Source of the DNA: Candidatus Cloacimonadales bacterium
GTDB lineage: Bacteria; Cloacimonadota; Cloacimonadia; Cloacimonadales; DAONDQ01
Assembly (NCBI GenBank): GCA_963662275.1
Contig: OY759316.1
Coordinates: forward strand, 352,001 to 416,000
Length of the DNA stretch: 64,000 nt
Reading direction: 5' to 3'
Both the position numbers and the translations under genes were made by a program. Shown here one piece after another: positions 44,504 through 63,600 of this stretch. Every line of letters begins with the position of its first letter. The stretch's first letter is position 1. The notes beneath the pieces were generated by a model, which was not told the origin of the DNA, searched no databases, and saw nothing but the letters and a program-made list of their open reading frames with translations.

Positions 44504-45733
44504 TTAATCATTATACAAAGCTGAGATTCTTTGAATTCTATCGATATTATCGGTAAAGATTTCGATTAATTCCGGGTCAAAAGCAGAACCGGAACATCTT
44601 TCCAATTCATCCATCACCTGTGCCTGATCCCAAGCTTCCTTATAAACGCGGGGACGGGAAAGTGCATCATAAACATCTGCAATTTTGACTATGCGTCCCC
44701 ATATGGAAATCTCTTCACCTTTGAGTCCAGTACCCATTTTGTGGTTTGTATGTGAATCAAGGTCTTTCTCTAAACTGTAATGTCCCGGGTAACCGGTTCC
44801 ATCCCAGCTTTCGTGGTGTCTTAACGCTATTTCAGCCGCCATGATTTCCAATTCGGAGGAGCTTTCCTTAAATAACTGAAATCCCAGGAGAGCATGCTGC
44901 TTGATGATATCGTATTCTTCAGGAGTCAATTTCCCCGGTTTTTTAAGAATATGATCCGGAACTGCAACTTTTCCAACATCATGCAGCATAGATGCAACAC
45001 GTAACATATCTTTCCGGATATCGATTTCAGATTCCGGGATTTTATTTTTACGTGCCCATACTTCATATAATTCAGCAGAATAAGCGCCAACTCTATTCAC
45101 GTGAGGACCGGTTTCCAGCGGGTCACGTAATTCAGCCATACTAATCATTCTCAATATAATTGTTCGAGTTAGTTCTGCTTTTTCTAGAGCAACTGCAGCG
45201 TTGTTTGCTAAATGTTCAAAGAAGGGTATCTCTTTATTTTTAAAAGGAACGACATTACCATCCTTGTCCTTGGCATTGATTAGTTGCAGGACACCAACAA
45301 TACGACTCGTTCCTGTTTTCAAAGGGATACTCAACATGGATTTCGTTTTATAACCAGCCATTACATCCACAATTTTACCAAATTGATATGAGGATTTTGG
45401 TGATATTTTATAAACATCAGGAATATTGAGGATTTCACCTGTTTCTGCAACGTAACCGGAGATTTTTAAGCGATCTATAGGAAATGACATTGTTGAGTAG
45501 ATGAGCTTTTGTCCATCGGGTAACTTACTTTGTTTAGTATCATTCTGTGAATATCGGAGATGAAGCATACCTTTCTGGCATTTATAGATTGTACCTGCGT
45601 CAGCAGATGCAAAACGTCTCGCTTCTGTTAATATCCTTTCAAGTAGGAAGTCTTCGTCGGTTACTTCTGTCATTAATTTACCTAAGCGAATGATTTCTTC
45701 TAACTTATCTCTCGTGTTCATATACTGCACCAC
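44504..45733 (-). CDS. GAF + HD-GYP cyclic-dinucleotide phosphodiesterase
   Basis: GAF (GYVAETGEILNIPDVY..TKSMLSIPL..GVLQLIN); ETGPH, LHDVGK, HHESWDGTGYP, ADVYDAL..R.YK. Confidence 0.93.
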   Translation of the reverse strand: MVQYMNTRDKLEEIIRLGKLMTEVTDEDFLLERILTEARRFASADAGTIYKCQKGMLHLRYSQNDTKQSKLPDGQKLIYSTMSFPIDRLKISGYVAETGEILNIPDVYKISPKSSYQFGKIVDVMAGYKTKSMLSIPLKTGTSRIVGVLQLINAKDKDGNVVPFKNKEIPFFEHLANNAAVALEKAELTRTIILRMISMAELRDPLETGPHVNRVGAYSAELYEVWARKNKIPESEIDIRKDMLRVASMLHDVGKVAVPDHILKKPGKLTPEEYDIIKQHALLGFQLFKESSSELEIMAAEIALRHHESWDGTGYPGHYSLEKDLDSHTNHKMGTGLKGEEISIWGRIVKIADVYDALSRPRVYKEAWDQAQVMDELERCSGSAFDPELIEIFTDNIDRIQRISALYND

Positions 45734-46864
45734 CTATTTAGTATTCATTGTAGGAATAGCGAAATTTTCATTTTTCTTATGTGTATTTTTCCAAATATCT
45801 ACTTTTTGTTTTTGTTCAGTGATTTGTTCTGGTGTTAGAGTTTTTTCCAAATCGTCTGCCATTGGAACGTATTGCTTCATGTCTTCGAAGGAACTATAAT
45901 TTGCTGCTAATGTCATCCAGTAATAGGCATCAGGAATACTTTTTACCAAGCCATTACCCTGGGAAGCTAGAACTGCCAGGCTATAGAAAGCACGAACATT
46001 ATTTTGTTCAGATGCTTTCTTTAACCATGTCACTGCTTCAGTGAAGTTCTGTTCCACTCCTGAACCTTGTCCATAAAGAATACCCAAGGCACTTTCACTA
46101 TCAGCATTTCCCTGCTCTGCTGACTTGCGATACCATAGGGCTGCCTCCGCATAATCAACATCGACCCCGGCACCTTGCGCATAGTAATTACCGACGATTG
46201 ATTGCGCTATCGCACTACCTTTATCGGCTGCTATTTTAAATTGGTTTAAAGCTAATGAATAATCTTGTTTGACTCCCCTGCCTTCCTGGTAAAGAACACC
46301 GAGTTGTATGATCGCTTCTATTTGTCCTTGCTCAGCAGCTTTACTGTACCAGGTGACAGCTATGGCTTCGTCTTTTTCTACTCCCTGCCCTTTTTCATAA
46401 CAGTAACCCAAGTTATATTTTGCTAAGGAATTTTCCATATTTGCACTTTTACGAAAGAGTTTTACGGCTTTTTCAGGATCCTTTGTTACACCTAGACCAT
46501 TCAAATAACAAACTCCCAGCAATCCAGATGCTTCAGGTATATTATTATCAGATGATTTTGTCAGCCATTCTGTTGCCGTTGTGTAATCCTGTGCAATACC
46601 TTCGCCAACGTAATACATGTAACCCAAATTATATTGGGCAGAAGGATGGTTCTTCTTTGCAGCTTCTATAAACCAGTAATATGCTTCCTTCATATTTTTA
46701 ATTGCTCCAAGTGATCCTTCAGCATATCGGGTTCCTAAAACATATGCTGCTTCAGCAGAACCGTTTTCAGCAGAATTCCGAAGATCATCAATACTGTCTA
46801 TTGCAGATATTTGAGTGATAAAGCTGATAATAACAATATAAAATATGATGGCAATGAGTTTCAT
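45734..46864 (-). CDS. Secreted Sel1-like repeat protein
   Basis: Signal peptide; about eight AQYNLG.MY..GEG...D...A..W..KAA repeats. Confidence 0.93.
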   Translation of the reverse strand: MKLIAIIFYIVIISFITQISAIDSIDDLRNSAENGSAEAAYVLGTRYAEGSLGAIKNMKEAYYWFIEAAKKNHPSAQYNLGYMYYVGEGIAQDYTTATEWLTKSSDNNIPEASGLLGVCYLNGLGVTKDPEKAVKLFRKSANMENSLAKYNLGYCYEKGQGVEKDEAIAVTWYSKAAEQGQIEAIIQLGVLYQEGRGVKQDYSLALNQFKIAADKGSAIAQSIVGNYYAQGAGVDVDYAEAALWYRKSAEQGNADSESALGILYGQGSGVEQNFTEAVTWLKKASEQNNVRAFYSLAVLASQGNGLVKSIPDAYYWMTLAANYSSFEDMKQYVPMADDLEKTLTPEQITEQKQKVDIWKNTHKKNENFAIPTMNTK

Positions 46865-47523: not shown

Positions 47524-49320
47524 ATGAATAATGAAATAACTCAGAATCAATTAAGCAGCGAAGAAATTCGAAATTCCCTGGAAAATATGGAGATCGAAAA
47601 AGCAAAGCTCGAATCAGCGTTGGTACCATTGTTAATCATGCTAACGGACTTGAAGAATTCCACAGTGTATTTTGATCGATTAGGAGATATTGCAGCAAAA
47701 TCTGTTATTTTTGCGCATAACCAGTTACTATTTCCTATTATTGAACAACATCACGGCATTATCGTAAAGACTACCGGAGATGGTATATTAGCATCCTTCG
47801 AAAGTGCTGCAGACGGTGTTGCTGCAAGTATTCAAATGCAGAAAGCTCTCAAAGAATTCAACAAGAGAAGAGAACCGGAATCAATCATGGAAATCAGGAT
47901 AGGTTTACATTATGGTAGGACTTTGGTTTTTGAGAAGGATGTTTTTGGAGATTCCATTAATACTGCTGCCCGTATTGAAGCCTTGGCAGACAGTGGACAG
48001 ATATTTCTTTCTAAAGCAGTTGTGGATGCAGCGCAATTAACTGAAGAATCGCTTTGTTTCATTGGGCATGTCTTACTGAAAGGCAAGCTTGTACCTGTGA
48101 GGATCTACGGATTAGTATGGGAAACAATGAATCCTGACCTTCTTTCAAGCTATGAAGAAAAGAAACGTACATTTGAGAAATTAAAATATGATAAGAACCA
48201 GCCTCAGATTAAAATAGAAGGTAATATTGCTTTGAAGGAAGATGAAACAGTACACATAGAATCTAAAAATAACCCATTCCTATATCGTTCTGCAATAACA
48301 CAACCTGCCTATTTCTATGGTAGGGATACTTTAATTCATAAAATATTCTCACGCCTGACCGCTCAACGTCCACAGTCGATATCGCTATACGGTGAAAGAA
48401 GAATTGGCAAATCCTCGCTTCTCTGGCAGATACAAAGCTTGAAATTACGTAAGCAATTTGTCCCTGACATTGAGAAGTATATCTTCATCTACATGGACAT
48501 CCAGTCCATGCGTTCAGCGACTATTGAGCACTTTATAGAGCATTTATTTAATGCAGTAAAAGACTCTTTCAGGGGTCAAATTCAATTTGAATTGCCCTGT
48601 GATTATCATGGTTTTACCTCTTTAGTAAGCGAATTGACAAAGGCAGATATCAAGATTATCGTTTTGTTTGATGAGTTCGACCTGATTACCCTCAATCATA
48701 ACTTCACAGAAGAATTCTATTCCTGGCTGCGTTCGATTGCCAGTCAATATCCGGTCGCATTCGTCACATCATCCTTTTCTCAATTACAGAATTTATGCGC
48801 TACCAAGAAAATATCAGATTCCCCTTTCTTCAATATCTTTACAGCTTTCCAAGTGAGTCCATTTACCCGGTTGGAAGCGGAAACTATGATCAAAGGCTTG
48901 CTGGAAATATCTCAAAGCGGTTATGATTTTTCTTCCTGGTATGATGAAATATGCAGACAGGCAGGATTACTGCCGTTCTTTATCCAGATATACTGTGCTA
49001 ATTTGTACGATTTATTTCCATCAAATCCAACTCTATCCGATGTAGCAGAAGCCTATTTTGAAGAAGCCAGGGAACACTTTGATCATATTATCCGTAATCT
49101 GACGAAAGAAGAAGCACAATGCATTGATTGCTTAATTTCAGGTAAGAAAATCGGGAAGAACCTGGTTCCTTCCTATCAGAATCTGTTGCGTAAGGGCTAT
49201 CTAATCGAAACTGAAGGTAAAGTAACCTCTTTTTCGAATCGGTTTGCCACCTATTTCACACAGCAAGCCACGAAGAATTCGAACCAGTCCATTTGGAGAC
49301 GTTTATGGAACAAATCCTGA
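47524..49320 (+). CDS. Class III adenylate cyclase fused to a STAND-like P-loop ATPase
   Basis: LTDLKNST, KTTGDG, RIGLHYG, DVFGDSINTAAR (cyclase); NPF..FYGR, GERRIGKSS, VLFDEFD, SPFFNIF (ATPase). Confidence 0.92.
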   Translation: MNNEITQNQLSSEEIRNSLENMEIEKAKLESALVPLLIMLTDLKNSTVYFDRLGDIAAKSVIFAHNQLLFPIIEQHHGIIVKTTGDGILASFESAADGVAASIQMQKALKEFNKRREPESIMEIRIGLHYGRTLVFEKDVFGDSINTAARIEALADSGQIFLSKAVVDAAQLTEESLCFIGHVLLKGKLVPVRIYGLVWETMNPDLLSSYEEKKRTFEKLKYDKNQPQIKIEGNIALKEDETVHIESKNNPFLYRSAITQPAYFYGRDTLIHKIFSRLTAQRPQSISLYGERRIGKSSLLWQIQSLKLRKQFVPDIEKYIFIYMDIQSMRSATIEHFIEHLFNAVKDSFRGQIQFELPCDYHGFTSLVSELTKADIKIIVLFDEFDLITLNHNFTEEFYSWLRSIASQYPVAFVTSSFSQLQNLCATKKISDSPFFNIFTAFQVSPFTRLEAETMIKGLLEISQSGYDFSSWYDEICRQAGLLPFFIQIYCANLYDLFPSNPTLSDVAEAYFEEAREHFDHIIRNLTKEEAQCIDCLISGKKIGKNLVPSYQNLLRKGYLIETEGKVTSFSNRFATYFTQQATKNSNQSIWRRLWNKS

Positions 49321-50279
49321 TTGATCGCCCACAATACACATCGCGCATATATTCACGGTTATTTGCTTCACGCCCCCAATCCATATCGATTATTGGTGAT
49401 TGGCAATTGGGTAAGTCATCTATATTGCAGCTTTTATCTGATGAAAGCTCATGCAATCAATACCAGTTTAATCATATGAATCCCATCTTTATCCTCTTTG
49501 ATTTAAAAGAATCAAAAGCAGATTGGCAGACATTCCTTTCATCCATATATGCCAAGTTAGCTCAATATTCAAATACGAAGCAGGATGTTACTCAAGTAGA
49601 TTCAGATATCTACCAGGCTTTACAAAAATTAGTGGTAGAATTACAGGAAAAGTATGCAATCTGCCTGTTGATCGATAATTTTGAATTACTGACCCAGAAT
49701 CCTGAAACACCCTTAGAATTCTTTTCCTATCTGCGATCCCTGGCAAATACCTACCGGCTTGCCTACATTACAACATCCAGAGCCTCACTGCAATCGCTAT
49801 GCGTAAGTTCAGATATCTGTGAATCGCCATTTTTTAACATCTTCACAAATCTGGAATTAAAGAATTTATCGGTGGACGAAGGAAAAACACTGTTAAATGC
49901 ATACAATATTACGGATAAAACGGAACTTGCCTTTGAAATAACCGGTGGGCATACTGGTCTATTCATGAAATGGATATTGTGGTTTGTTCATAACCAGGAT
50001 GTAGGGCATGATCAAATACAATCACAATTCTTTGACTCGGTTGAGTGGTATTGCCAGGAATGGTTTGCTCAATTCAGTCCTGATTACCAGGAAGTATTAA
50101 CGAAACTCGCCAAGCAGGAGAAAATCCCCTCTGATAAGCAGTATCTGATGGAATCACTGAAACGTAAAGGCTATCTTACTATTGCGAATACTATTTCTGC
50201 AAGGGCATTTTATAATTATCTGTTGCAGCAGGAATCAAAGCCTAAAGCTGGATTGTTCGCCAGGCTGTTTAAAAAGTAG
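49305..50279 (+). CDS. Stand-alone STAND-like P-loop ATPase with degenerate Walker B
   Basis: GGAG SD before ATG 49305; GDWQLGKSS, LLIDNFE, LRSLA, SPFFNIF; paralogous to the upstream ATPase domain. Confidence 0.85.
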   Translation: MEQILIDRPQYTSRIYSRLFASRPQSISIIGDWQLGKSSILQLLSDESSCNQYQFNHMNPIFILFDLKESKADWQTFLSSIYAKLAQYSNTKQDVTQVDSDIYQALQKLVVELQEKYAICLLIDNFELLTQNPETPLEFFSYLRSLANTYRLAYITTSRASLQSLCVSSDICESPFFNIFTNLELKNLSVDEGKTLLNAYNITDKTELAFEITGGHTGLFMKWILWFVHNQDVGHDQIQSQFFDSVEWYCQEWFAQFSPDYQEVLTKLAKQEKIPSDKQYLMESLKRKGYLTIANTISARAFYNYLLQQESKPKAGLFARLFKK

Positions 50280-50318
50280 GTATAAGAATTTAAGATTTAA
50301 GATGTAAGATTGGCAGAG

Positions 50319-50540
50319 CAGTCCGGTACGGACGATAGATAATAACGCTCGGATTTCAATCCGGCGAGAGATGACTCAAAGTGACAACCAGTCCGGTACG
50401 GACGATAGATAATAACGCTCGGATTTCAATCCGGCGAGAGATGACACGGAGATCATCTGTCGTCCCGATGGGACTTAGACCTTCTTCTTATATCCTGCAC
50501 CGGATTGAAATCCGGTGTTAATATGTTTCTTCCCTACGGG
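50319..50540. repeat. REP-like cluster: 57-bp perfect direct repeat x2 plus inverted partners
   Basis: 50319-50375 = 50389-50445; inverse pieces TGTCGTCCCGATGGGACT and CACCGGATTGAAATCCGGTG. Confidence 0.8.
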
Positions 50541-50571
50541 AATACGAAACTACGAAATCTCAGGAGAGTGT

Positions 50572-53500
50572 ATGAGTTATAACCAGATACCCCAGAATCC
50601 TTATATCGTTGGAAATCCCATCCAATCGAGCAGTATGTTTTATGGACGGAATGAAGACTTCCTCTATATCAAGGATAAGCTTCAAAAAGAAGCACGGGGT
50701 CTGATTATTACACTCGCTGGGGAAAGACGAAGCGGGAAGACATCCATCCTGTTCCAAATCCTGAATGGCAGGCTGGGTGAAGGGTATCTTCCCTTCTTTG
50801 TCGATATGCAGGCAATGGCTGCAGTGGAATCAGATGCCCAATTTCTCAGTCGTTTGGATAACGTAATACGAACTCAATTAACTATCCAGGTTTCCGAGCA
50901 GGATTATCAAGGCAATAAATGGTCAGCTTTCGAAAATTTCCTCCATTCAATTAAAGAAGCATATACAGAGAAGAAAATCATATTCCTCCTGGATGAGTAT
51001 GAAATCATCGAAAACAAAATTGATAAACAAATGATTACAACAGAAATGATCACTTTCTTTGCCAATCTGATGGAAAATCATAACATCTTTTTCCTGTTTA
51101 CCGGTTCTAACAAATTGGAAGACCGCAATGCCACATATTGGAAAACACTCTTCAGTAAATCACAATATCGAAAGATCACTTTCCTTCAAAAAAAGGACTG
51201 TCTTGATTTAATAACAAAGCCTGTTGAAAACTATGTGATCTATACTCCTGATCAATTGGATAATATCTGGCGTCTCACAGCAGGACAGCCATTCTATACT
51301 CAGATCTTCTGCCAGAATATGGTGGATAGGCTGCAATTGGAACAGCATAATGAAGTGCTGGACAATGACATCGATGCTGTCATTAAAGATATTGTAGATA
51401 ATCCCATGCCCCAGATGATCTATTTCTGGCAGGAATTGGATGCTAAACATAAACTGACATTATCCATTTTAGCAGAAGTAATCAATACTAAAGATGACTG
51501 GGTAGACTGTGATGATCTAATGAAATGCCTGAAAAACCAAAAGATCGATATCAATATCCATGCTTCAGATTTTCATACTGCCATGGAAGAACTCTATCAT
51601 AATGATATCTTAACCAAGAAAGGCAAACAATACCAATTCCGTGTCGATATCTTTCGCTTCTGGATCAAGCAGGAACAGAATGTCTGGAAACTGCTGAGTG
51701 AGATAAAAATTGATAAAGAAAAGAGACCAGTACATCGTTTAACTCTTTCTATTGGTTTTGTTCTTATGGTACTTTTGATTATAGGTGGTTTATTCAGAAT
51801 TTATATAGTACTGAAACCTACATCTGAATTTGGTATGAGCAAAAATCGTGAAGCAATAAATTTGTATAAGCAAGCGCAGGATAGATTTGCAGAAAACGAC
51901 ACAAGCTTTGCTCTTCAAAACGTAAATCGTGCATTGGCAGCAGATTCCTCTTTTTTCATGGCAAAAATACTCAAAGCAGATATTCTGAAAGCACAGAATA
52001 ATCTTCCAGAAGCTCTTAAAGTATATCAGAATGCAGAAAACCAATATTATTATAGTACCGATGTCGGGGAAAAAATCAGTTCTATTCCAATTTCTTTCAA
52101 AACTGATGATAAGCTAGCTCAATGGAGAACGACAGATACAGAGGATTATTTTATCTATGATATGCTTTATATTTCTCATGTACTTTCAAATGACATGATT
52201 AAAGCAAATAAAAATCATAATCTTTATATTTATAGCTTAAGAAAGAATAAGTGGTTTTCTTTTCAGAATTCTGTATGTTTAATGACTGATAAGAAGGCTA
52301 TTTTCTTTTATAATATCCAAAATCAAGCTCTTTGTAAATTCGATGTTAACCGAGGGAAAACAATATGGAAAACGAAATTAACAGGTTTATTACAGAACTC
52401 ACTTATACCTGATATATCTGAAACAAAACATTGTAAGTATTTGATACTAAGAGAAAGGAAGCAGCTTTTTCTTTTTAATCAGGATACGGGAAAACTTGTC
52501 ATTCGTAAAGTCTATCCAAATAATATACAGAACGTCTTTTTCCTATCCAAGGATAACCGACTTTGGGTTGTCTTTGACCAAATGCATCAAATCCTCAGCT
52601 TACCAGACTTGTCTTTTATCACCCAAAAGACTATTCCAAATATGGATGTTTCTTTTGAGAAGGTCAATAATACAATCATTAGCTCTAATGATTCCAACAA
52701 TCACAGAACAGAGCTATTAGAGTATAAAGAACAGAATGGAAAGTTAAATCGAATTACAAATATCTTTGCATTCAACAATGAAAGTGGAAATGGAACTATG
52801 TTAAGTAAAAAGCTGCTCTATGTTTTAAATAATAATAAACCGCAGGTTTTTAATTTACAAACCAAACAGCTATATTCAATGTCCAATTTGAGCCGTTATC
52901 AAATTCTAAGCATGTATTCTAATCAGTATGAGATTGGAAATTATGACGACAGAATATTTTTCTTTACAGAAAAAGACTTATTGATCTATAATTTAAAAAG
53001 TCATAAAGTGCAAGAAGTTATTGCTCTTAATAAACTGACAGATTCTACCACTTCTTCCATTCCTACAGACATAGAATTTGATAAATATCGAAAACGTATT
53101 ATTTGTCTCTATTCGGATAAAACAGAATCAAATAATGTACAAAGCCAAGTAATATCCATTGTGGACATAAAGAAGAAGAGTATCATATACAGTAATCGTT
53201 TGGACATTAATACCCCAATATCATTCATTCAAAAAAATATGTACTCTTTTATACAATATGACGTTCTTGCTTACGCGAATCTCATTTGGAATGAAATTAA
53301 CTTCGTTTTAATGAATCCTGATAATTATCAAGTATCTTTTGTTGCGAAACTTGATATGATGCTGATATATAAAAATAAACTATTTATCATGAAAAACAGA
53401 GATGTGCTCTGTCTCAATACATTCCCTCGCCAAGATAATAAATACCTTCAAAAAATACAGGAAAATATCATTCTGTTGAGTTTCCAATTAAAACAGCCAA

Positions 53501-54990
53501 AAAACGTAATTGAAAGCTTTGATAAATTGATCAAATATGCTAAAACAGTCAACGATGTGAATGTCCTAAGGACTATAATTAATACTGTTCAAATATTCAA
53601 ACCTGAGATGCTAGGATATTATGTAACAAAATGTGTAAATCTTTCAAACGACCTTAACTCTCTTAAACCAGATATTAATTATTCAATGCAGCTAATTCCT
53701 TCAGCACGATTTAAGGATAAATTACTACCACATAATAGCTATGATGAACTGGAAAAATTGAATGATGAATTGGTTGCTCGAGTAGATGAAAATTCTGTTT
53801 TTAGAATAAATAATAACCAACCAGATCTTCTATATCAGGAAACAAATACTAACAACATCTACGTTGCGAGTGGAATATCATCGTATATTCAGAATACGGA
53901 ACCACCTAAATTGAACATAGTGGACAGGCAAAATCATGTTTTTACACATAATTTACCCTTTCCAAAGCAGATGAGAGCTGCAATCAACTGGTATGATGAA
54001 AACAATATAGTATATATAACCCAGGAACAATTTGGAGACGGCTTTAATTATGAAATGAGGCCAATGGATATCTATACAGGTAATAAATCTATCATTTGGC
54101 AGAAATGGAGTAGCAGTCTTCATCTAATAGGCATGATTCAAAGAGAGAATAAAGTTGGTCTCATGTACTCTGATAGTCTTGCTAAAGTCTATTATGTCAA
54201 AACACCTCAAAGCAAATTAATCATTCCCGATTTTTCCCAAATTCTGTCTGTTAATAGTAAAGACATTGAAAATTCAGATCAGATAATGATGAATGAATTT
54301 CCTAAATCAGTAATCACATATATCTCAAGTGGTAAAAATACTTCTGTGACACTCAGTAAGGATGAACTGTCTTCTGCGCAATTCATGAATTTGACAAAAC
54401 AATATATCCAATGGTTTGATGTGAGAAATTCAGTTTTTGAACCTATCATTGAACTCGATAAACCATGTAGTATTAGTCATAATGAAATTGAGATTTATGA
54501 TTCAATGATAGACGATAAATATATTATTCAAAGGGGAAAAGATGTAGAAAATAACGCTTTCTTTAATATAGCTTTCAATTGTTTAACAGGAGCTGTTTCA
54601 GATTACCAAGTCCTACCTGCATCAAATGATCGTAGCTCAATTACATATAAAAATTACTCGTTAATGGAAAGCAGTCTCAATATAGGGATGGTAAATATTA
54701 AACTATATAAACAAACTGCGAATGGTAAATTAGCGCTACTTTGGGAAAAACAGATACCGTATGACTTTGGATATCTTTATAATATTCAATCTGGTATTTG
54801 TACTTTAATATGTAATCTTTCTACTAATAATATATCGAACCGCCATCTTGTTTATCTCTCTGAAACAGACGGTCATATCATCAAATCATTCCCTATTTTG
54901 AATGATATGCAGTATTTTTCATTCACAAACCAACCTCCTATCCTCTTTCATAAGAAACTTGGGTTTTATGAATTACCAGCAGTCAAGTGA
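50572..54990 (+). CDS. STAND-like ATPase + TM helix + TPR-like + predicted beta-propeller region
   Basis: AGGAG SD; NPYIVGNP..FYGR, GERRSGKTS, FLLDEYE, TAGQPFY; TM LTLSIGFVLMVLLIIGGLF; TPR-like helices; PQQ/WD-like blades (FDVNRGKTIWK, FNQDTGKLV, LSETDGHIIK). Confidence 0.85.
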   Translation: MSYNQIPQNPYIVGNPIQSSSMFYGRNEDFLYIKDKLQKEARGLIITLAGERRSGKTSILFQILNGRLGEGYLPFFVDMQAMAAVESDAQFLSRLDNVIRTQLTIQVSEQDYQGNKWSAFENFLHSIKEAYTEKKIIFLLDEYEIIENKIDKQMITTEMITFFANLMENHNIFFLFTGSNKLEDRNATYWKTLFSKSQYRKITFLQKKDCLDLITKPVENYVIYTPDQLDNIWRLTAGQPFYTQIFCQNMVDRLQLEQHNEVLDNDIDAVIKDIVDNPMPQMIYFWQELDAKHKLTLSILAEVINTKDDWVDCDDLMKCLKNQKIDINIHASDFHTAMEELYHNDILTKKGKQYQFRVDIFRFWIKQEQNVWKLLSEIKIDKEKRPVHRLTLSIGFVLMVLLIIGGLFRIYIVLKPTSEFGMSKNREAINLYKQAQDRFAENDTSFALQNVNRALAADSSFFMAKILKADILKAQNNLPEALKVYQNAENQYYYSTDVGEKISSIPISFKTDDKLAQWRTTDTEDYFIYDMLYISHVLSNDMIKANKNHNLYIYSLRKNKWFSFQNSVCLMTDKKAIFFYNIQNQALCKFDVNRGKTIWKTKLTGLLQNSLIPDISETKHCKYLILRERKQLFLFNQDTGKLVIRKVYPNNIQNVFFLSKDNRLWVVFDQMHQILSLPDLSFITQKTIPNMDVSFEKVNNTIISSNDSNNHRTELLEYKEQNGKLNRITNIFAFNNESGNGTMLSKKLLYVLNNNKPQVFNLQTKQLYSMSNLSRYQILSMYSNQYEIGNYDDRIFFFTEKDLLIYNLKSHKVQEVIALNKLTDSTTSSIPTDIEFDKYRKRIICLYSDKTESNNVQSQVISIVDIKKKSIIYSNRLDINTPISFIQKNMYSFIQYDVLAYANLIWNEINFVLMNPDNYQVSFVAKLDMMLIYKNKLFIMKNRDVLCLNTFPRQDNKYLQKIQENIILLSFQLKQPKNVIESFDKLIKYAKTVNDVNVLRTIINTVQIFKPEMLGYYVTKCVNLSNDLNSLKPDINYSMQLIPSARFKDKLLPHNSYDELEKLNDELVARVDENSVFRINNNQPDLLYQETNTNNIYVASGISSYIQNTEPPKLNIVDRQNHVFTHNLPFPKQMRAAINWYDENNIVYITQEQFGDGFNYEMRPMDIYTGNKSIIWQKWSSSLHLIGMIQRENKVGLMYSDSLAKVYYVKTPQSKLIIPDFSQILSVNSKDIENSDQIMMNEFPKSVITYISSGKNTSVTLSKDELSSAQFMNLTKQYIQWFDVRNSVFEPIIELDKPCSISHNEIEIYDSMIDDKYIIQRGKDVENNAFFNIAFNCLTGAVSDYQVLPASNDRSSITYKNYSLMESSLNIGMVNIKLYKQTANGKLALLWEKQIPYDFGYLYNIQSGICTLICNLSTNNISNRHLVYLSETDGHIIKSFPILNDMQYFSFTNQPPILFHKKLGFYELPAVK

Positions 54991-55115
54991 AGTACGAAGT
55001 TCGAAGTGCGAAGTACGAAGTTGCAGAACAAGAAGAAGGGAAGATTGATTGAATAGAGCACGTAGTGTGAAAGATAATAGCCTAGCGTAAGCTATGGGTA
55101 ATCATAGGAGAATGT

Positions 55116-57119
55116 ATGAGTTATAATCAGATACCTCAGAATCCTTATATCGTGGGAAATCCCATCCAATCGAGTTCAATGTTTTATGGTCGGAATGAAG
55201 ACTTCCTCTATATCAAGGATAAGCTTCAAAAAGAAGCACGGGGACTGATTATTACACTTGCAGGAGAAAGACGAAGCGGGAAGACATCCATCCTCTTCCA
55301 AATCCTGAACGGCAGGCTGGGTGAAGAGTATCTTCCATTCTTTGTGGACATGCAGGCAATGGCAGCAGTGGAATCGGATGCCCAGTTTCTCAGCCGTTTG
55401 GATAATGTGATCAGAACTCAGTTGACAATCCCTGTTGCAGAACAGGATTACCAAGGTAATAAATGGTCTGCATTCGAAAACTTCCTCAATTCTGTGAAAG
55501 AAGCATATCCGGGGAAGAAAATCATATTCCTCTTAGATGAGTATGAAATCATTGAAAATAAAATAGATAAACAAATGATTACGGCAGAAATGATCACTTT
55601 CTTCGCTAATCTCATGGAAAATCATAACATCTTTTTTCTTTTCACTGGTTCGACAAAGCTTGAAGATCGCAATGCATCTTATTGGAAAACACTCTTCAGT
55701 AAATCACAATATCGAAAGATCACTTTTCTCAAGAAACAGGATTGTATCGATTTGATCACTAAGCCTGTTGAGAATTTCGTTATCTATACTCCTGATCAAT
55801 TGGAGAATATCTGGCGTCTGACTGCCGGTCAGCCATTCTACACACAGATATTCTGTCAGAATATGGTGGATAGACTGCAATTGGAACAGCGTAATGAAGT
55901 ACTTGAAGAAGATATTGATGCTGTCATTACCGATATTGTTGACAATCCTATGCCCCAGATGATCTATTTCTGGCAGGAACTGGATGCCAAACATAAACTT
56001 ACACTTTCCCTCCTGGCAGAAATCAATACGACGAAAGATAAATGGGCTGATTGTGATGATTTATTAAAATGTCTGAAAAACCAGAAGATAGATATCAACA
56101 TTCACGCATCGGATTTCCATACTGCTTTTGAAGAGCTTTATCATAATGACATTCTATCAAAAAAAGGCAAACAGTACCAATTCCGTGTCGATATCTTCCG
56201 CTTCTGGATCAAACAGGAACAGAATGTCTGGAAACTACTCAAGGAAGTGAATCTTGATAAAGAAGCCAAACCTACACGGAATAACATCCTGGCAGTGAGT
56301 ATTGTTGGGCTCTTGGTAGTGATTTGTGCTGGTGTGCTTTTTTATGCGTTGAAGCCAAAACCAGCAACAATCCAGAGTTCCAAACCCACACAAAATACTA
56401 AAATCGAGGAAATATATGTGGATGGAGGTACGTTCACTATGGGTGACACAGCAGGTGGTGGAATTGAGGATGAAAAACCTACGCATCAAGTGAAGCTATC
56501 CTCTTTTTATATAGGGAAATACGAAGTTACCCAGGAGCAGTGGCAGGATGTCATGAACTATAATCCTTCCGTTTTCAGAGGTGAAAGCCTTCCGGTTGAG
56601 GCGATAAGCTGGTACGACTGCATTGAATTCTGCAACAAACTAAGCCTGCAGAAAAGATTAATGCCTTGTTATAGCGGAGATCGAAACAATATAACGTGCA
56701 ATTGGACTGCCAATGGTTACAGGCTTCTCACGGAAGCAGAATGGGAATATGCTGCCAAAGGTGGTAAAAAGAGCAAGGGTTACAAATATTCAGGCGATAA
56801 CGAACCGCAAAGTGTGGCTTGGTACGCTGCAAATTCCAGCAGCAGGACACACCAGGTTGGTCAAAAACGAGCAAACGAACTGGGATTATCTGATATGAGC
56901 GGTAATGTCTGGGAATGGTGCTGGGATAGGTTTAAAGCAGATTATTATAGCCTGAGTCCTATATCAAATCCGAGGGGACCAGAAGAAAAATCGTACCGGC
57001 TGCTGCGCGGTGGCTCCTGGTTCTTCAATGAATACGGTTGTCGTGTTTCTACCCGTAATTATCTTAACGAAGGAGACAGGCGAGATAACATCGGATTTCG
57101 ATTATGCAGAAGGAAATGA
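55116..57119 (+). CDS. STAND-like ATPase + TM helix + FGE-sulfatase (C-type-lectin-fold) domain
   Basis: N-terminal ~383 aa nearly identical to the previous gene; TM ILAVSIVGLLVVICAGVLF; GGTFTMG, KYEVT, RLLTEAEWEYAA, DMSGNVWEWC, RGGSW, GFRL. Confidence 0.92.
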   Translation: MSYNQIPQNPYIVGNPIQSSSMFYGRNEDFLYIKDKLQKEARGLIITLAGERRSGKTSILFQILNGRLGEEYLPFFVDMQAMAAVESDAQFLSRLDNVIRTQLTIPVAEQDYQGNKWSAFENFLNSVKEAYPGKKIIFLLDEYEIIENKIDKQMITAEMITFFANLMENHNIFFLFTGSTKLEDRNASYWKTLFSKSQYRKITFLKKQDCIDLITKPVENFVIYTPDQLENIWRLTAGQPFYTQIFCQNMVDRLQLEQRNEVLEEDIDAVITDIVDNPMPQMIYFWQELDAKHKLTLSLLAEINTTKDKWADCDDLLKCLKNQKIDINIHASDFHTAFEELYHNDILSKKGKQYQFRVDIFRFWIKQEQNVWKLLKEVNLDKEAKPTRNNILAVSIVGLLVVICAGVLFYALKPKPATIQSSKPTQNTKIEEIYVDGGTFTMGDTAGGGIEDEKPTHQVKLSSFYIGKYEVTQEQWQDVMNYNPSVFRGESLPVEAISWYDCIEFCNKLSLQKRLMPCYSGDRNNITCNWTANGYRLLTEAEWEYAAKGGKKSKGYKYSGDNEPQSVAWYAANSSSRTHQVGQKRANELGLSDMSGNVWEWCWDRFKADYYSLSPISNPRGPEEKSYRLLRGGSWFFNEYGCRVSTRNYLNEGDRRDNIGFRLCRRK

Positions 57120-57220
57120 AGAGCAGAAATTACGAATTACGAATTATGAATTGAAGAGTATAGGGGCAATACAAATTACAGAGAAAATACACACATATAG
57201 AACATACGGCTCTTAATTGA

Positions 57221-57286
57221 TTACCGAGGGACGACCAAGGGATGACCGAGAGATGACCGAGACTAAACCGAGACTGCTCTCGGTAA
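57221..57286. repeat. 11-bp period repeat (ACCRAG.....) x5 bounded by IR TTACCGAG/CTCGGTAA
   Basis: Units at 57223, 57234, 57245, 57256, 57267. Confidence 0.7.
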
Positions 57287-57386
57287 TGGCAGGCTGATGG
57301 TTGGTTTAGGTTTCAATTATAATTGGCTATTCATTTAGGTAGAACAATAGAATTAAGAATTGCGGATAGGCTTGCTGATGCTTGAA

Positions 57387-57657
57387 ACGGAACGCCTCAC
57401 CCCGTGAGGTGGCAAAAGGCACCCCGTGCGTTTTCTACTTTTTGCAGAGAACATGGGAGAGAAGGGAAGAAGGACTTGCAGAATGGAAGATGGAAGATTG
57501 TGCAGAGAAGAGCAGAGAATTTATTTCCGTAAATCCATACGAAGAATCTAACTATCCGCTTAGACTTTGCTTAGGGCAAGCCAATACCACTCGTTAATTG
57601 ACGGGGGTTAAAACGCACGGGGTGCGTTTTGCCACCTCACGGGGTGAGGCGTTCCGT
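57387..57657. repeat. MITE/REPIN-like element with 48-bp terminal inverted repeats
   Basis: 57387-57434 vs 57610-57657 match at 47/48; 175-bp interior. Confidence 0.8.
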
Positions 57658-57689
57658 CTGCAACTTTTAACTTTTAATTTTTAATTCTC

Positions 57690-60600
57690 CTAAGGCAGAT
57701 CCCTTTCCGCAGTGATTTTATAGAAATGTATGGGTCTGAGTCTTTCTTCTACGTAAGTAGGTGTTTCCGTGGTCATGACTAAATTGGGGAAAGTGCCATT
57801 CGGGTCTGTATCTACATAAATACGGAAACGTGAAACGGGCAGAGGATATGTCCAATTCAATTCAACTTTTTGCGTTTCGGTGTTGAAGCTGACGGTTGGG
57901 GTTGGTACGGGTGGCAGGGCATTCCAAATGACCTGTGATGGTCCGAAGGCATTATTCGTTTCAATTGCTTCCGCAACGCTTGCATTTTCATCGACAAAGG
58001 CATAGGAAGTCCAGGTTCCAGCCACATCAGAGCTGACCAGGACGAAAGTGACGGTTGCACTAGCCCAGGCATCGAGGGAGTTGATAGTCATATATTGATT
58101 TCCCACAGTTCCTGTGGTAGGGGCGGATGCCCTTGTATAATACAAATCCACACGTATAGGTGTGCCGACTCCCACAGCGCTATTGTTCATGATAGTCACA
58201 TCCACAGTATTCGCATCACAGACATAGAGATTATTGCTGTTATAGAACATACTCACGATCTTCAAATCAGGAAGCGGTCCATTCCAATTGATCAGGTTAT
58301 TGGGATCGCTCTCATAAGAAGCACCAGAGAAAGCTCCTGAAGCGCCGCTCATATTGATCAGTCCCTGGTTTGCTGCTTTGGTGACATTCTTGGCATTGCT
58401 GCCTGCATTGGTGGGGAATGAGGCATAAGGAATGGTGATCGTTGCATTGTTTTCTATTTTCAGCAAAGTACCGCCTGCTACACCATTTTGGAATGTACAA
58501 TAAGAGAAAGGATGAAGAGGATCCAGTATCGAACCGTTCATCAGGTAAACACCATTGGCAGTCATGTATTCAAAAGTGGCATATTCAGCACTTAAAGTGG
58601 CACCGCTTGCCAAGTAGAATAAGTAATTCCCTGTGGATTGATGCGTTATTTTTGCCAAATGCCCGGATGCTCCGATCACTTCCAGGTAACCACCTGTATT
58701 GACTGTCAGTGTCTTCGTATTTGCCACCTCAAGCCAGGCATCGGAATCAAGGCTTATTTTACCTGTGCTGTTAATGGTCACGTTGCCGGTTGTGCGGAAG
58801 TATTTATGATTCATAAGGAGTGTTCCTGAATTGATGGTCATGGTTCCGGTCATCGCTACGACCATAGGATATTGCATCAGCACAGTTGTCGCAGCGGTCT
58901 TTTCTATTGTGAGATTATAAATATAACTGGTACGGCAATCATAGAAAAAGTTCTGGCTGTTCCCGCCCTTGAGTTTGATCGTATTTAGCCTGCTGCCATT
59001 CCAAATGCCATTGACGCTCAAGTATACATCCCCTGAGAATTCATGAATATATCCTGTGGTTGAATCATACCATTCACCACGTGTAAGGGTCAGGTTACCT
59101 AATACTTTACAGAATTTGGTTGGGATGAATCTCCCTGCAGTTTTATTGACGATCAGGTTATAAGCATTTATCACTGATGCTGAGTTGGTGATAGTCTGAT
59201 CTGCTGCACCGTTGAAGGTCAAGGTGGAGGTTCCGGGATTGAATCCCTGGGTTTCATTATAAACTCCGTTTGAATCAGTCCAGTTACCTCCGACAGAGAT
59301 ATTCAAGCCCATATCGGTATTGGCATTCAAGCCTGCACCTGAGGATATGACCAAATTGCCTGTCACAGCAAGTGTGGAGTTGTCATTCATCTCGAATGTG
59401 CCATCTGTAATCGTAAGGTTACCACCAACAGTACAGGTCTGTCCTGCAGCTAGTTCAAAGGCATCTGTACTGGCGTTTGTATTATTCAGCACGAGATTAT
59501 TGAAGGTTTCAGAGGTCAGCAATCCAGTATCCACTGAATTGCCAGCAAAGGTAACGGTGTTACTAATTTCGAAGAAGCCACTCGTACCAACCGTATTCGT
59601 CCAATTGCCATAAACCGTAATCGCATAGCTGGATTGCAGGATACCGCTATAGATCTGCATATCTCCCCGAATTGTAATCGCTGATGTCTGAAGCGCAGTG
59701 TAGCCACGGGTCGAAGTTCGAAGTGCGAAGTCCGAAGTTCGAAGTGAAGAAGGAAGAGAAGAATCAGAGGAATTGCGAAGTTCGAAGTCCGAAGTTCGAA
59801 GTGAAGAAGGAAGAGAAGAATCATAGGAAGTTCGAAGTTCGAAGTTCGAAGTTCGAAGTGAAGAAGGAAGAGAAGAATCATAGGAATTGCGAAGTTCGAA
59901 GTCCGAAGTGCGAAGTGAAGAAGGAAGGTTTACCCCCCTGCCCCCCTCATCAAGGGGGGGTATTGGGTCAGCAGACCCATCCCCGGAACGGGCACCTTTG
60001 TTTATGCGGAGGGTGTAGAATGAACTGCCGGCTGCCATATCAAGTACACCGTCTGTAGTACCGGTCATTTCGATTGTACCACCGGCAGGAACGAAATTGG
60101 TTCTGTAGCAGTAAATATCTCCCACAACACTGATCACACCCCCGGAGATATCCGAATTGAAAGTATAGCTATTAAGAGGCAGTTTGATACCCCAGGATTT
60201 AAAATTGAGTTGTCCGCTGTCCATCAGGATGGAAGCATTTGCCAAATAGGCAAATTCATAGGCTTTGCTGCCTCCATAGATGTTGATGATACCGTTTTGA
60301 GTGATATACAGATTACCGTTGAGATCACACCAACTGCCTGTATCCTGGTGCAGTTCGATGGTTCCATTTGTTGCATAGTATTTTCCATAAATTCCAGCAT
60401 CCACCAGGTCATTCACGATAATTATACCTAATCCTGTTGCTCTCAATGTTCCGCCTCCATCGTAGGAAGCAATTGTGGAAGTAAGTCCGTAATGCTGTTC
60501 TACAGTGGCTGTGGAGCTATTGTTATTTAGCAAATTGATAGTCATGTTATCCTGGAAATAGACGATATTGGAAACAAAGAGTGTATTCCCAACTGTGCAG

Positions 60601-63600
60601 GTATGCATGAACTGCAATTCATTGCCTGTATGGCTATCCGTGACATTATAGAAAGTCGTGGCACCCGAGATCGTCTGTACACCGCCAGCCTGGTTGAATA
60701 TCACGGTTCCTGTACCGGGTATGAAGCGATTCTCGGAATTCGGATTATACCAATTCCCGCCTAAACTGATGGTATTGCTGTTGGAAGCCAGTTTCCCGGA
60801 ATTGATGTAAAGCTGTCCTTTCACAGTAATCGGGCTTAACAAGTTAAGAGCTACTAGTCGATATTTATTGATTTGCAGATTGAAAATATAGTTACCGTTG
60901 TTGCAGGTCAGGGAATTCTCTGTTCTGCCTATCATTTGCAGTTCCCCTGAAGTCATTTGAAAGGCATTGAGTGCCGTAGCTGTGAAATTTCCACCTACTT
61001 TTAGAAAACCGTCTCCATAAGAACGGGTTTCATGGGCATCCATGATCACATTGCGATATGTGATCTGCAAGATACCCGCTGACATCTGGATTCCTCCATT
61101 GAGCACTGTGTCAGAGCCTTCCAGATAAGCAGGGGCATCCTGGATGAAGGAACCGCCATCGATTTGCAGTAGGGAAGAGCTGGAAGGATAGAAACTGCCA
61201 AGCACGGTACAAGTGCCCGTTCCCACGCTGAGTGTTCCATCTAATGTCAGGTCGGATGTGAGATACAGGTAACCGCCGGTTCCAAGGGTGAGATTTGCTG
61301 TTGCAGGAACGGTCAGAGCATTGATAACACGGGCAGGCTTTCCTGCCAGATCGAGCGTATTATTCGGGTCAATGGTCAAAGAACCCAACACTAAAAGAGA
61401 ATCGGTACTGGCAGGAAGTACATGGAAATAGGGAGTTTCCTGCGTACCTTTGATTGCCAGGTTGCCGAAATGAGCATATAAACTGGAATTTAGAATGGTA
61501 CCACCATAATCAGCCCTCAGGTTCACTTGTGTATTCTCCAGTTGTACGATACAACCGGTTTGAAATTCCCAATTGCCGTAACAATTGATCGTTCCGTTTG
61601 CTCCAGCCATACCTGAAGTAGATGTCCAGATAAAGTCATTGTATGTTGTGAGAGTCCCATGATATTGCATATTCAGTTGACCGGCTATTTGAATACTGTT
61701 CAAAACAGTAACTGTGAAAGTATAAGGCTCAAATTTGCCTGCAGTTAGATGGAAATAGCCATGTATATTCACATCCGAAGCAGCTTGCACTACATATAGA
61801 GATCTTTGGTTTGGAAGCGTGGTGTTCTGACCTTCAGCACGACTGGCAGATTTTGCAATGACAAGATTGTTCAGATAACTCCCTGGAACAATGGAAAGCT
61901 CTGCTTGTTGAGATCCGATCATCTCGATGATTCCGCCTGTAGGCTGGAAATCAGCACGATTACATACGAATTTACCTGCAGTTAGGATCATTCCACCTGT
62001 GATATTAGCCGTAAATAAGTGAGTGTTCGTAATAACAATACCTTTATCCACGAACTCAAAGAGACCGTTGCTCATTGTTAAAGATGCATTGTCATCCTGT
62101 GCCCAATTGCTGTCCGAGTTACCGCCATGCACCATAAACGAACCGTTATCAATCGTGATATTCGCATTCATGGCAATTTGAGCAGCACCGTCCTGGGTAT
62201 AATTGATTACCCCATTTGTCATATAAATGGTTCCAAAGATGCCATTATCGACCAGGTCATGGACGATGAAAGTTCCGCCATAAACACGATATTCGCCCGA
62301 CATCCAGTCATAATAATTACAGGATGTAGTCGTATTGACAGGAAATTGCAGATAGCCACCGCTTTTGTTTAAAATGATCTTGTTGAAGGTTTCACCAAAG
62401 ACAGCCTGGAGCTTTGATCCTGTGAATTCTACAACTCCGTTGCCTTCGCTATAACCACTGGTGCCTATGTTGTTATACCAGTTTCCTTCAATTTTCATAG
62501 GATAACCGTAAGCTACCACAACTCCAGCAGTGATAGTAAAATTTCCTTTGACCCAGAGAGGTCTTCTCAAATTCACAAGGGCGCTGCTCACACTTTTCAG
62601 AATCGTTAGGTCATTAAAATAGCTTGCAGTATCATATTCATAAATATCAGTCGTCGTACTGCCCTCAATATTAACCACGCCATTAGAGAAGTAACAATGT
62701 CCACCTTCCAGATTTATGTAACCGCCACGAAAATGGATGGTACCATAATACAGATAATTAAATGTACTCCCGGCAGTGTTGGAGAAAAGACCGATAATAT
62801 AGAGTTCATTCGTAGAGGATGCGCTGAAATTAACGGCAGCAGGAGCGGTTTTATTGATCTTCAGGTTTCCAAGAGTCTGTCCGGAATTGACGTTTATGGA
62901 TGAATCTAAGGTACCGTTGAATTCCAGGGTGGAATTGGTTAGATTCACAGCGCTTCCGCGATTGAATGTCAAATCTCCCTGGATGTTTATCTTGGAACCC
63001 GTTGTAATGGTCGGCGTGGTTGCATAACTGTAAAAAGTAACGTCACCGTTCACATTCATTACACTGGCTGCATTCGTCAGATTCAGTTCTCCGGCAGTCG
63101 TAAAGTCATTGAGTACATTCAAAGTACCGGCATAGATAGATATCTTTGCACCGACAAAAACATGAAGATCCAAGCAGGAAATGGTTGATGTAATGGCGGG
63201 ATAGTTGCTTAGTCCACCTGGTATTTCCACAACATCTGAAGCTGTTGGTATACCATTCTTCCAATTTAAAGAAACGTTCCAGGAAATACCGTTACTACCT
63301 GTCCAAATCTTGGGCAAGGTACCACCATACTGGAAGGAGATATCATCTCCCGCTGTTCCGATATTGGAAATTTGCAGACCTCCGTCCACCATGCCTTCAG
63401 ATAGGAAACCATACGGGAAGGTGTTTGAATTGATCCCGGTCCTGCCTTCCTGTAAACAATAGTTAGCACTGTTGATGATGCCATCCACGGTTGGATAACC
63501 CTGGGGACGATACACATAGATCTCGTCTTCACCATCTGCATTCCCGTCATGATTGGTATTCACGCGATAGACGATGAGTCCTGTGCCCGGGACGTTGATG

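Follow-up and report, generated by a model that had tools for sequence, protein, structure and literature searches.

STAND nucleoside triphosphatases (NTPases) are known as soluble intracellular sensors (e.g., NLRs, Avs, and MalT), and transmembrane signalling in bacteria runs mostly through histidine kinases, chemoreceptors, receptor Ser/Thr kinases, and anti-sigma systems. The present study deals with two adjacent genes, termed gene 3 and gene 4, that lie in a 64,000-nucleotide stretch (the window) of the genome of a Candidatus Cloacimonadales bacterium (GenBank assembly GCA_963662275.1, contig OY759316.1, positions 352,001 to 416,000 of the forward strand) and that join a nearly constant STAND-type module to unrelated C-terminal domains. 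Considered together with the nSTAND2 genes upstream of them, genes 3 and 4 probably encode single-pass receptors of a multi-STAND system with two sensors and one cyclase hub.

Among the closest described systems are the nSTAND2 two-gene operons, for which the part of Kaur, Burroughs, Iyer, and Aravind (eLife 2021; PMC8195603) that concerns them proposes a hetero-oligomer of both NTPases and describes variable effectors, mostly GT4 or HEPN, on the eroded nSTAND2 copy. The same part of that paper takes the formylglycine-generating enzyme (FGE) or C-type-lectin-like domain of STAND-FGE (FGS) fusions as the ligand-binding part. In the iSTAND ternary systems, as set out in the corresponding part of Kaur et al. 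(eLife 2020; PMC7159879), vWA-MoxR is combined with an inactive STAND, and PEGA, OmpA, PASTA, or Sel1 domains lie behind a membrane segment. The two genes of the window comprise the following features.

50572-54990, + strand: gene 3, 1472 aa
50572..51720, + strand: predicted cytoplasmic STAND module of gene 3, residues 1-383 (NTPase domain, helical domain, winged helix)
51757..51813, + strand: predicted single membrane helix of gene 3, core residues 396-414
51829..54990 (including the stop codon), + strand: predicted ectodomain of gene 3, 1053 aa, fast-evolving and AT-rich
55116-57119, + strand: gene 4, 667 aa
55116..56264, + strand: predicted cytoplasmic STAND module of gene 4, a copy of that of gene 3, residues 1-383
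56286..56342, + strand: predicted single membrane helix of gene 4, core residues 391-409, with LKPK and a short linker (to about residue 433) behind it
56406..57119 (including the stop codon), + strand: predicted ectodomain of gene 4, FGE-sulfatase / C-type-lectin-like, residues 431-664

The locus resembles the nSTAND2 two-gene operons in having two adjacent nSTAND2 genes, one of them with an altered nucleotide motif, and the receptor module is homologous to the NTPase of these operons. It differs from them, as far as they are presented in that part of PMC8195603, in that the altered copy is bare and keeps its Walker A motif while the effector sits on the intact copy, in that this effector is a cyclase (a kinase in relatives) rather than GT4 or HEPN, and in that a third STAND is present, which is membrane-anchored and carries an outside domain. 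Like the STAND-FGE systems, gene 4 couples a STAND NTPase with an FGE domain, the closest solved structure being TvpA; in the described STAND-FGE systems and variable proteins of diversity-generating retroelements (DGRs), however, the FGE domain lies inside the cell and is in many cases diversified by a reverse transcriptase encoded close by, whereas the FGE domain of gene 4 is predicted to lie outside the cytoplasm and no template repeat was found. The order of NTPase, helical lid, and winged helix is shared with PABY2304 (2qen), SSO1545 (2fna), and Orc1/Cdc6, although these proteins are soluble and only 13-16% identical in sequence to the module. As in the iSTAND ternary systems in the portion of PMC7159879 drawn on here, a membrane segment followed by PEGA-type envelope-facing domains occurs in NTPase-centred multi-gene systems; unlike those, the cluster of the window has no vWA or MoxR gene (Pfam scan) and its STAND motifs are intact. 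The literature searched, the scope of which did not extend to subscription journals or to the source data of figure 6 in PMC8195603, yielded no account of a STAND that is anchored in the membrane and paired with a kinase- or cyclase-nSTAND2.

A constant STAND-type module in two adjacent genes

An earlier reading of the window, made from its letters and open reading frames (ORFs) and hereafter called the sequence-only reading, had reported a gapless alignment of 50572-51720 with 55116-56264, with about 32 differences in about 383 amino acids. These segments, the first 1149 bases of the two same-strand genes, do align without gaps, and the count was exact (32 of 383 residues, 91.6% protein identity); the figure of about 92% holds for protein and not for DNA, in which 165 of the 1149 bases differ (85.6% identity). 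Third codon positions hold 126 of these 165 differences. The Nei-Gojobori estimates between the two modules were 0.95 for synonymous (dS) and 0.049 for non-synonymous divergence (dN), and the resulting dN/dS of 0.05 bears out the purifying selection that the sequence-only reading had proposed. Each copy is 80.2% identical to the nearest orthologue (P0122) and the branch lengths are short and similar (0.067 and 0.043), so that neither copy is decaying.

The similarity of the gene copies starts about 20 bases 5' of each ATG, at a common ribosome-binding site (AGGAGA..TGTATG), and the high identity stops at ..DKE, residue 383. The abrupt end described at this position thus holds for the high identity, not for all similarity: over about 100 bases past DKE, which encode the membrane helix, residual similarity between the two genes persists (0 of 2000 codon shuffles reached its score), and LKP stands directly after the helix in gene 3, gene 4, and the orthologues. 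Because the helix DNA outscored the codon shuffles and both genes keep LKP, the duplicated piece probably extended to about residue 416, with only the strong constraint ending at DKE. Elsewhere in the family, modules of about 381 aa occur on their own and stop at exactly the point at which genes 3 and 4 cease to be similar, and the N-terminal 90 residues are the most conserved part of the module.

Both modules matched Pfam ATPase_2 (PF01637; 44.9 bits for gene 3 and 48.0 bits for gene 4, cut-off 33.2) over residues 23-241. Walker A (AGERRSGKTS) and Walker B (IIFLLDEYE) motifs are present in both and invariant in alignment A2 of the family, and a GR motif (MFYGRNEDF, residues 22-30), in which M22, F23, G25, R26, and F30 are invariant in A2, precedes the P-loop. 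An hhGR[ED] motif at this place is said to have been given by Leipe et al. in 2004 as a mark of the STAND class. The AlphaFold2 model, built from A2 on the module of gene 4, to which that of gene 3 is 92% identical, consisted of an NTPase domain, a helical domain, and a winged helix, with a predicted local distance difference test score (pLDDT) of 89.5. Its best Foldseek matches were Cdc6/ORC, PABY2304 (2qen; TM 0.57/0.62, E 3e-10), SSO1545 (2fna), CED-4, and NRC4, together with the G10 resistosome, and the alignments to Cdc6/ORC, CED-4, NRC4, and G10 spanned about 390 columns. At the sequence level, the module profile had no match below E 0.37 among solved chains, no NCBIfam cut-off was exceeded, and PADLOC matched neither receptor. 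The hhalign comparison of the receptor module with the nSTAND2 part of the cyclase protein encoded upstream gave 99.4% and E 2.8e-21 over 333 columns. Since the module falls below the Pfam nSTAND2 threshold though this homology is clear, it is classified here, by motifs and profiles, as a STAND-type NTPase of a sister clade of nSTAND2 and not as a member under Pfam's rule.

Predicted topology and ectodomains

Gene 3 has one sole hydrophobic 19-residue window of at least 1.6, flanked by DKEKRPVHR on the cytoplasmic side, and gene 4 has a single hydrophobic helix just past the module, with basic residues N-terminal of it. Because basic residues flank the N-terminal side of the sole helix, the module is predicted to lie inside and the tail outside the cytoplasm in both receptors.

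In its model, the ectodomain of gene 3 begins with TPR-like helices, after which come two beta-propeller-like regions with a helical region between them. No Pfam family attained its cut-off there. The AlphaFold2 model had a pLDDT of 68.6, and Foldseek retrieved multi-propeller proteins (e.g., EMC1 and DDB1) at E of about 1e-13 with TM-scores of only about 0.15; the model thus gives moderate confidence that this ectodomain holds two beta-propellers. An exhaustive search (E <= 1e-10) of 1.84 billion representative proteins detected it in just 5, one of which is the window's own.

The ectodomain of gene 4 matched FGE-sulfatase (PF03781) with 174.6 bits (E 3.8e-51; cut-off 23.3 bits). Its closest solved structure is the Treponema denticola variable protein TvpA (PDB 2y3c, E 4.8e-46), and true formylglycine-generating enzymes followed well behind at E of about 1e-21. 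Catalytic formylglycine-generating enzymes use an active-site cysteine pair, C-x4-C. In a single pairwise HMMER alignment, the first Cys of Streptomyces FGE chains (..LCHDSYC..) corresponds to Phe in gene 4 (..FFNEYGC..), and Phe stands at this position in TvpA-type relatives too. The FGE domain of gene 4 is predicted from sequence to bind a ligand rather than to act as an enzyme.

Origin of gene 4 and distribution of the module

The genome (4.38 Mb, a single contig) contains only these two copies of the module. None was detected in 40 genomes of the order (E <= 1e-10), and across the phylum the module occurred in 3 of 232 genomes, this one counted, while a same-genus genome that is 99% complete lacked it. 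In the two other Cloacimonadota loci (L004 and L005), a cyclase-nSTAND2 gene, a short nSTAND2 gene, and a receptor gene of 1478-1489 aa follow each other in the same order as here, and the neighbourhood DNA examined there held no second, FGE-bearing receptor. The ectodomain of the orthologues is collinear and homologous with that of gene 3 (E 1e-72, 23% identity); identity to the orthologues was 24-36% for the gene 3 ectodomain and 69-80% for the module. In a maximum-likelihood tree, the module of gene 4 was sister to that of gene 3 (support 98/96) within the long-form clade. Because the orthologues share the architecture and order of gene 3 and the tree nests gene 4 among them, gene 3 is considered, on this comparative evidence, the ancestral receptor of a conserved three-gene operon and gene 4 a later, lineage-specific partial copy.

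The FGE domain of gene 4 is 59-68% identical to FGE paralogues of its own genome but only 37-42% to those that occur elsewhere in the module family. Since the own-genome domains are the closer ones, the FGE fusion of gene 4 was made locally and independently, and gene 4, a copy of the gene 3 module joined to a local-type FGE domain, is the sole real domain swap of the pair. Queried from 56265 onwards, gene 4 matched no other DNA of the genome until base 151 of the query.

The genome shows an FGE-sulfatase expansion, with 82 matching stretches in about 45 open frames (e.g., 2908065-2917562) and one 3333-aa frame with more than 10 FGE repeats. The DNA similarity of the FGE paralogues stops some 185 bases short of the 3' end of gene 4, which hints at a variable C-terminal part. 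DGR diversification of gene 4 was considered as well. In a non-exhaustive search, the last 420 bases of gene 4 turned up no DGR template repeat; their full-length matches all lay in paralogous FGE coding sequences, at most 77% identical and covering the first 235 or so bases. The genome has 18 RVT_1 matches (e.g., 724408, 735338, and 2211519), 17 of them in equal-score groups of 444-465-aa frames, and the reverse transcriptase examined belongs to a 2.1 kb element about 95% identical to at least 10 other copies; this family looks like a proliferating group II intron-like one. With no template-like repeat and an intron-like reverse transcriptase, DGR diversification of the FGE domain was not adopted, an 896-aa RVT_1 frame at 3093771 being left out of this assessment.

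The base composition changes at the module boundaries as the sequence-only reading had seen. The modules of genes 3 and 4 have 38.3% and 38.9% guanine plus cytosine (GC), the ectodomain of gene 3 has 31.1%, and the FGE part of gene 4 has 45.0%. Relative to genome windows of equal size, the gene 3 ectodomain is in the lowest 0.3% and the FGE part in the top 5%. At third codon positions (GC3), the values were 0.42-0.43 in the modules, 0.43 in the FGE part, and 0.28 in the gene 3 ectodomain, the latter being the 7.6th percentile of the long ORFs of the genome; the FGE part is GC-richer solely at first and second codon positions. The orthologues show the same drop from module to ectodomain (0.58/0.47 in L004 and 0.80/0.67 in L005, compared with 0.43/0.28 here) at very different genomic GC. 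Because they share it, the composition step is not a mark of foreign DNA, and a foreign origin of the AT-rich ectodomain of gene 3 was ruled out. As a caution on method, a sharp intragenic composition step need not mean foreign DNA.

Conserved partnership with nSTAND2 genes

Two further NTPase genes lie upstream of gene 3.

47524..49320, + strand: cyclase-nSTAND2 protein, 598 aa, with a class III cyclase at residues 38-188 (PF00211, E 2.7e-12) and an nSTAND2 NTPase at residues 280-529 (PF20702, E 1.3e-30, 107.1 bits)
49293..50279, + strand: short nSTAND2 protein, 328 aa, without effector domain (PF20702, E 8.4e-17, 61.8 bits)

These genes are adjacent on the same strand with a 28-base overlap, and PADLOC gave only weak cyclase and STAND matches for their products. 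The cyclase-nSTAND2 protein, with intact Walker A (GERRIGKS) and Walker B (DEFD) motifs, is predicted to be the output and hub subunit. In the short nSTAND2 protein, Walker A is intact and Walker B reads D-N in place of D-E; DN or DD was found in all 11 aligned short nSTAND2 proteins, and DE in all seven effector-linked nSTAND2 proteins and in both receptor modules. The short protein probably binds ATP without hydrolysing it. Judged by homology, the cluster encodes four related NTPase modules.

Relatives of the module (E <= 0.001) amounted to 680 and 278 proteins in two length ranges and came from KSB1, Calditrichota, Poribacteria, Spirochaetales, Acidobacteriota, and other lineages, many of them uncultured. 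The 58 complete module proteins carried PEGA (33), FGE (5), or Reg_prop/Y_Y_Y propellers (3, N-terminal of the module), had no further Pfam domain (15, i.e., three long forms, 11 of about 616-841 aa, and L060), or were stand-alone or short (2). At the family level, domain shuffling around a constant module is thus real. A reverse order, with the module C-terminal and Reg_prop/Y_Y_Y propellers plus TPR repeats before it, was seen in L023, L024, L025, L022, L036, and L060.

In 82 related loci scanned with a profile built from the partners, an nSTAND2 gene was detected in 43, on the same strand in all except one; it was present in 15 of the 15 loci with at least 2.5 kb on each side and in 28 of the 67 shorter ones. 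All 30 partner proteins scanned matched PF20702, of which 19 had a protein kinase (two also a cyclase, one also a caspase), five a cyclase only, and six nothing further. In L021 and L035, two module genes with different C-termini (modules 58% identical) adjoin one kinase-nSTAND2 gene. Because these two loci share it, the layout of two sensors and one partner is regarded, on gene order, as a recurrent one, of which the window has the youngest instance observed. Moreover, an outer-membrane barrel (Phenol_MetA_deg family), a TonB-dependent receptor, or a secreted PEGA protein is encoded between receptor and nSTAND2 in distant loci (L062:12293-13609, L027:4573-5880, L067:4843-7080, and L065:11906-12637), without counterpart in the window; these intervening envelope-protein genes point to a system that acts at the cell envelope.

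Predicted docking and proposed mechanism

When the module was modelled in complex with residues 245-598 of the cyclase protein, the prediction scored 0.65, compared with 0.00 for the best of three controls. In a calibration that applies only roughly, because our own alignments were used, this score was attained by 116 of 157 solved complexes and by 2 of 215 mismatched pairs. The docking runs shared at least 88% of contacts, with a partner pLDDT of at least 82. On the module, the predicted interface draws on its most conserved motifs, i.e., residues 8-16 (NPYIVGNP), 245-256, 276-287 (NPMPQMIYFW), and 367-376, and it is enriched in residues invariant in A2 (17 of 45, compared with 52 of 338 elsewhere; odds ratio 3.3, p 0.0007). 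The model thus supports docking of the module onto the cyclase-nSTAND2 protein.

In the proposed mechanism, a ligand or envelope cue at the ectodomain would switch the cytoplasmic module, which would then assemble with the nSTAND2 partner or partners via the invariant surface motifs of the family, and this assembly would turn on the cyclase (a Ser/Thr kinase in most relatives). Gene 4 arose in its own lineage by tandem duplication of the gene 3 module and membrane helix, followed by joining to a lectin-like FGE domain of its own genome, and the two modules would have been kept 92% identical at saturating silent divergence since both must dock the same partner. Comparison establishes the anatomy and homology, the way in which gene 4 originated, and the conserved partnership of the genes; the direction of signalling, the hetero-oligomer, and the shared docking partner as the reason for conservation are inferred.

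Spacers and neighbouring genes

50280..50571, + strand: spacer separating the short nSTAND2 gene from gene 3, 292 bases, with a direct repeat and a terminator-like hairpin
54991..55115, + strand: spacer between genes 3 and 4, with short dispersed repeats and a ribosome-binding site like that of gene 3 (AGGAGA..TGTATG)

The direct repeat of the first spacer is 57 bases long, with copies at about 50319-50375 and 50389-50445 and about 15 genome-wide, and contig depth is raised there; the hairpin lies at 50497-50518. In the second spacer, 54991-55050 had 72 partial matches across the genome. Downstream of gene 4, the 570-base spacer 57120-57690 contains a 272-base element (57389-57660) with inverted repeats of about 45 bases at its ends, 85 partial genome matches, and raised contig depth. 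ACGAAGT-like runs stand immediately 3' of stop codons in the spacers around genes 3 and 4. The dispersed spacer repeats may have mediated rearrangement.

Past the downstream spacer, a gene of more than 2096 aa is encoded on the opposite strand; this ORF of at least 2102 aa (57690-63998, minus strand) runs past the end of the window, converges on gene 4, and has a weak N-terminal M6 peptidase match and a CARDB domain near the C-terminus. Just upstream of the cluster, on the minus strand, lie genes for a GAF plus HD/HD-GYP-type protein (44504-45733) and a Sel1-repeat protein (45734-46864). The former was considered as a conserved cyclic-nucleotide reader for the cyclase and discarded, being absent from the L004 and L005 neighbourhoods; the Sel1-repeat gene is absent there too.

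Alternative explanations

Several observations weigh against the reading of genes 3 and 4 as receptors of one nSTAND2-centred system. Neither receptor matched Pfam nSTAND2 (PF20702; cut-off 24 bits) at E <= 0.01. The 82 loci are not independent, as they include near-duplicates (e.g., L062/L069, L025/L026, and L005/L019/L020), and 39 of them show no partner, most plausibly because of short contigs. In the docking model, only 1 of the 32 paralogue differences falls in the interface, a depletion that is not significant (p 0.15), and likeness to solved AAA+/STAND oligomers may add to the complex score. Furthermore, the 292-base spacer with its terminator-like hairpin parts the nSTAND2 genes from gene 3, so that co-transcription is less certain here; the equivalent gap in L004 and L005 is 9-12 bases only. 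A lower silent divergence at the start of the modules is a further point, and it would allow for some gene conversion. Concerted evolution, i.e., gene conversion between the tandem copies 4.5 kb apart rather than selection for a shared partner, would also keep the modules alike. It would fit the distribution of silent differences, 18 of 85 in the first 90 codons and 87 of 249 in the rest (p 0.02), that of residue changes, 1 and 31 respectively (p 0.002), and a longest identical run of 17 codons. This run, however, was not significant in a permutation test (p 0.09), constraint alone can explain the residue pattern given the family-wide conservation of the N-terminal 90 residues, and silent sites are close to saturation across most of the module (window dS 0.96 to >2), so that the copies have not been homogenised. 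Some conversion may have occurred within the first 90 codons, but it cannot explain the 92% protein identity, which requires purifying selection because silent divergence is near saturation; as the cause of the likeness, conversion is quite improbable.

The sequence-only reading had gone further and proposed a polymorphic receptor family built by swapping ectodomain cassettes onto the module. In its strong form, with foreign cassettes repeatedly swapped and the AT-rich part of gene 3 a recent one, this is very improbable, even though similarity falls sharply and composition shifts past residue 383, many different C-termini exist family-wide, the stand-alone modules end at the identical boundary, and both genes are flanked by dispersed repeats. 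The genome search found two copies only, an outcome which that reading had itself named as speaking against it, and no silent cassettes lie 3' of gene 4, where 57120-57690 has no + strand ORF of at least 80 aa. A dS of about 0.95 means that the duplication is not recent. For gene 3 the proposal is largely refuted, its ectodomain being collinear with that of the orthologues, homologous to it at 24-36% identity, and subject to the same GC3 drop at different genomic GC; swapping onto the module thus stands for the family as a whole and for gene 4, not for gene 3. An assembly artefact, in which one gene had been collapsed or chimerised into two copies with different tails, is scarcely credible. 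The contigs of the short-read graph do break in the shared part, leaving 496-base pieces (50670-51165 and 55214-55709). Runs X1 and X2 (two studies), of which one or the other may be the sample from which the genome was assembled, nevertheless yielded a 4068-base contig (51153-55220) and a 1720-base contig (55697-57416) with zero differences; these bridge both module/ectodomain junctions, which disposes of the chimera that had been named as a possible objection, and the copies differ at 165 sites in a single-contig genome. Contig joints at 50540/54989 (runs X4 and X5) and 55019/57474 (all four runs) would skip exactly gene 3 or gene 4; they were not read as deletion variants, their sides being 20-30 bases within dispersed repeats. 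Contig cover in X5 was patchy.

If genes 3 and 4 are receptors of a multi-STAND system, this could act in defence or in ordinary sensing at the envelope. A conflict system against phages or competitors, with envelope-facing invader sensors, a cyclase messenger that sets off a defence or suicide effector encoded at another place, and an ectodomain arms race, is rather unlikely. It is favoured by the sporadic spread (3 of 232 phylum genomes, and none in the same-genus genome), by the fast ectodomains (24-36% identity between orthologues, compared with 69-80% for the module), and by the TvpA-like lectin, whose closest solved relative is a DGR variable protein; it would also fit the cyclase domain, with weak PADLOC matches to Pycsar cyclases (E 2.8e-07), the caspase domain that the partner in L084 bears as well, and the interpretation of nSTAND2 two-gene operons and STAND-FGE fusions as counter-invader systems in the part of PMC8195603 concerned. 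Ordinary signalling, by contrast, is favoured by the outputs, kinases and cyclases that are usual in it, by the envelope genes of distant loci, which suggest envelope or nutrient sensing, and by the lack of a toxin, nuclease, or pore-type effector in the cluster here, in L004, or in L005. The receptors were also without a PADLOC match, and gene 4 without a DGR template repeat found.

Implications

A tandem duplication with one domain swap is an ordinary event, and it is the system itself that appears to be an undescribed nSTAND2 variant. Tentatively, genes 3 and 4 may represent an undescribed class of transmembrane receptor, in which an outside sensor is connected by one helix to a STAND module that nucleates a hetero-oligomer with a kinase- or cyclase-bearing 'helper' nSTAND2 protein; by analogy, and just as tentatively, such a receptor could be viewed as a membrane-spanning counterpart of sensor/helper NLR pairs. 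The pair makes this reading testable, as the modules differ at 32 residues, hardly any of which lies in the predicted interface, and the ectodomains are unrelated. If the reading is true, the locus would be a natural experiment in which two unrelated ectodomains share one docking surface kept for a long time for a single helper, and the coupling of an outside domain to STAND oligomerisation would constitute a further route of transmembrane signalling, present in many uncultured phyla.

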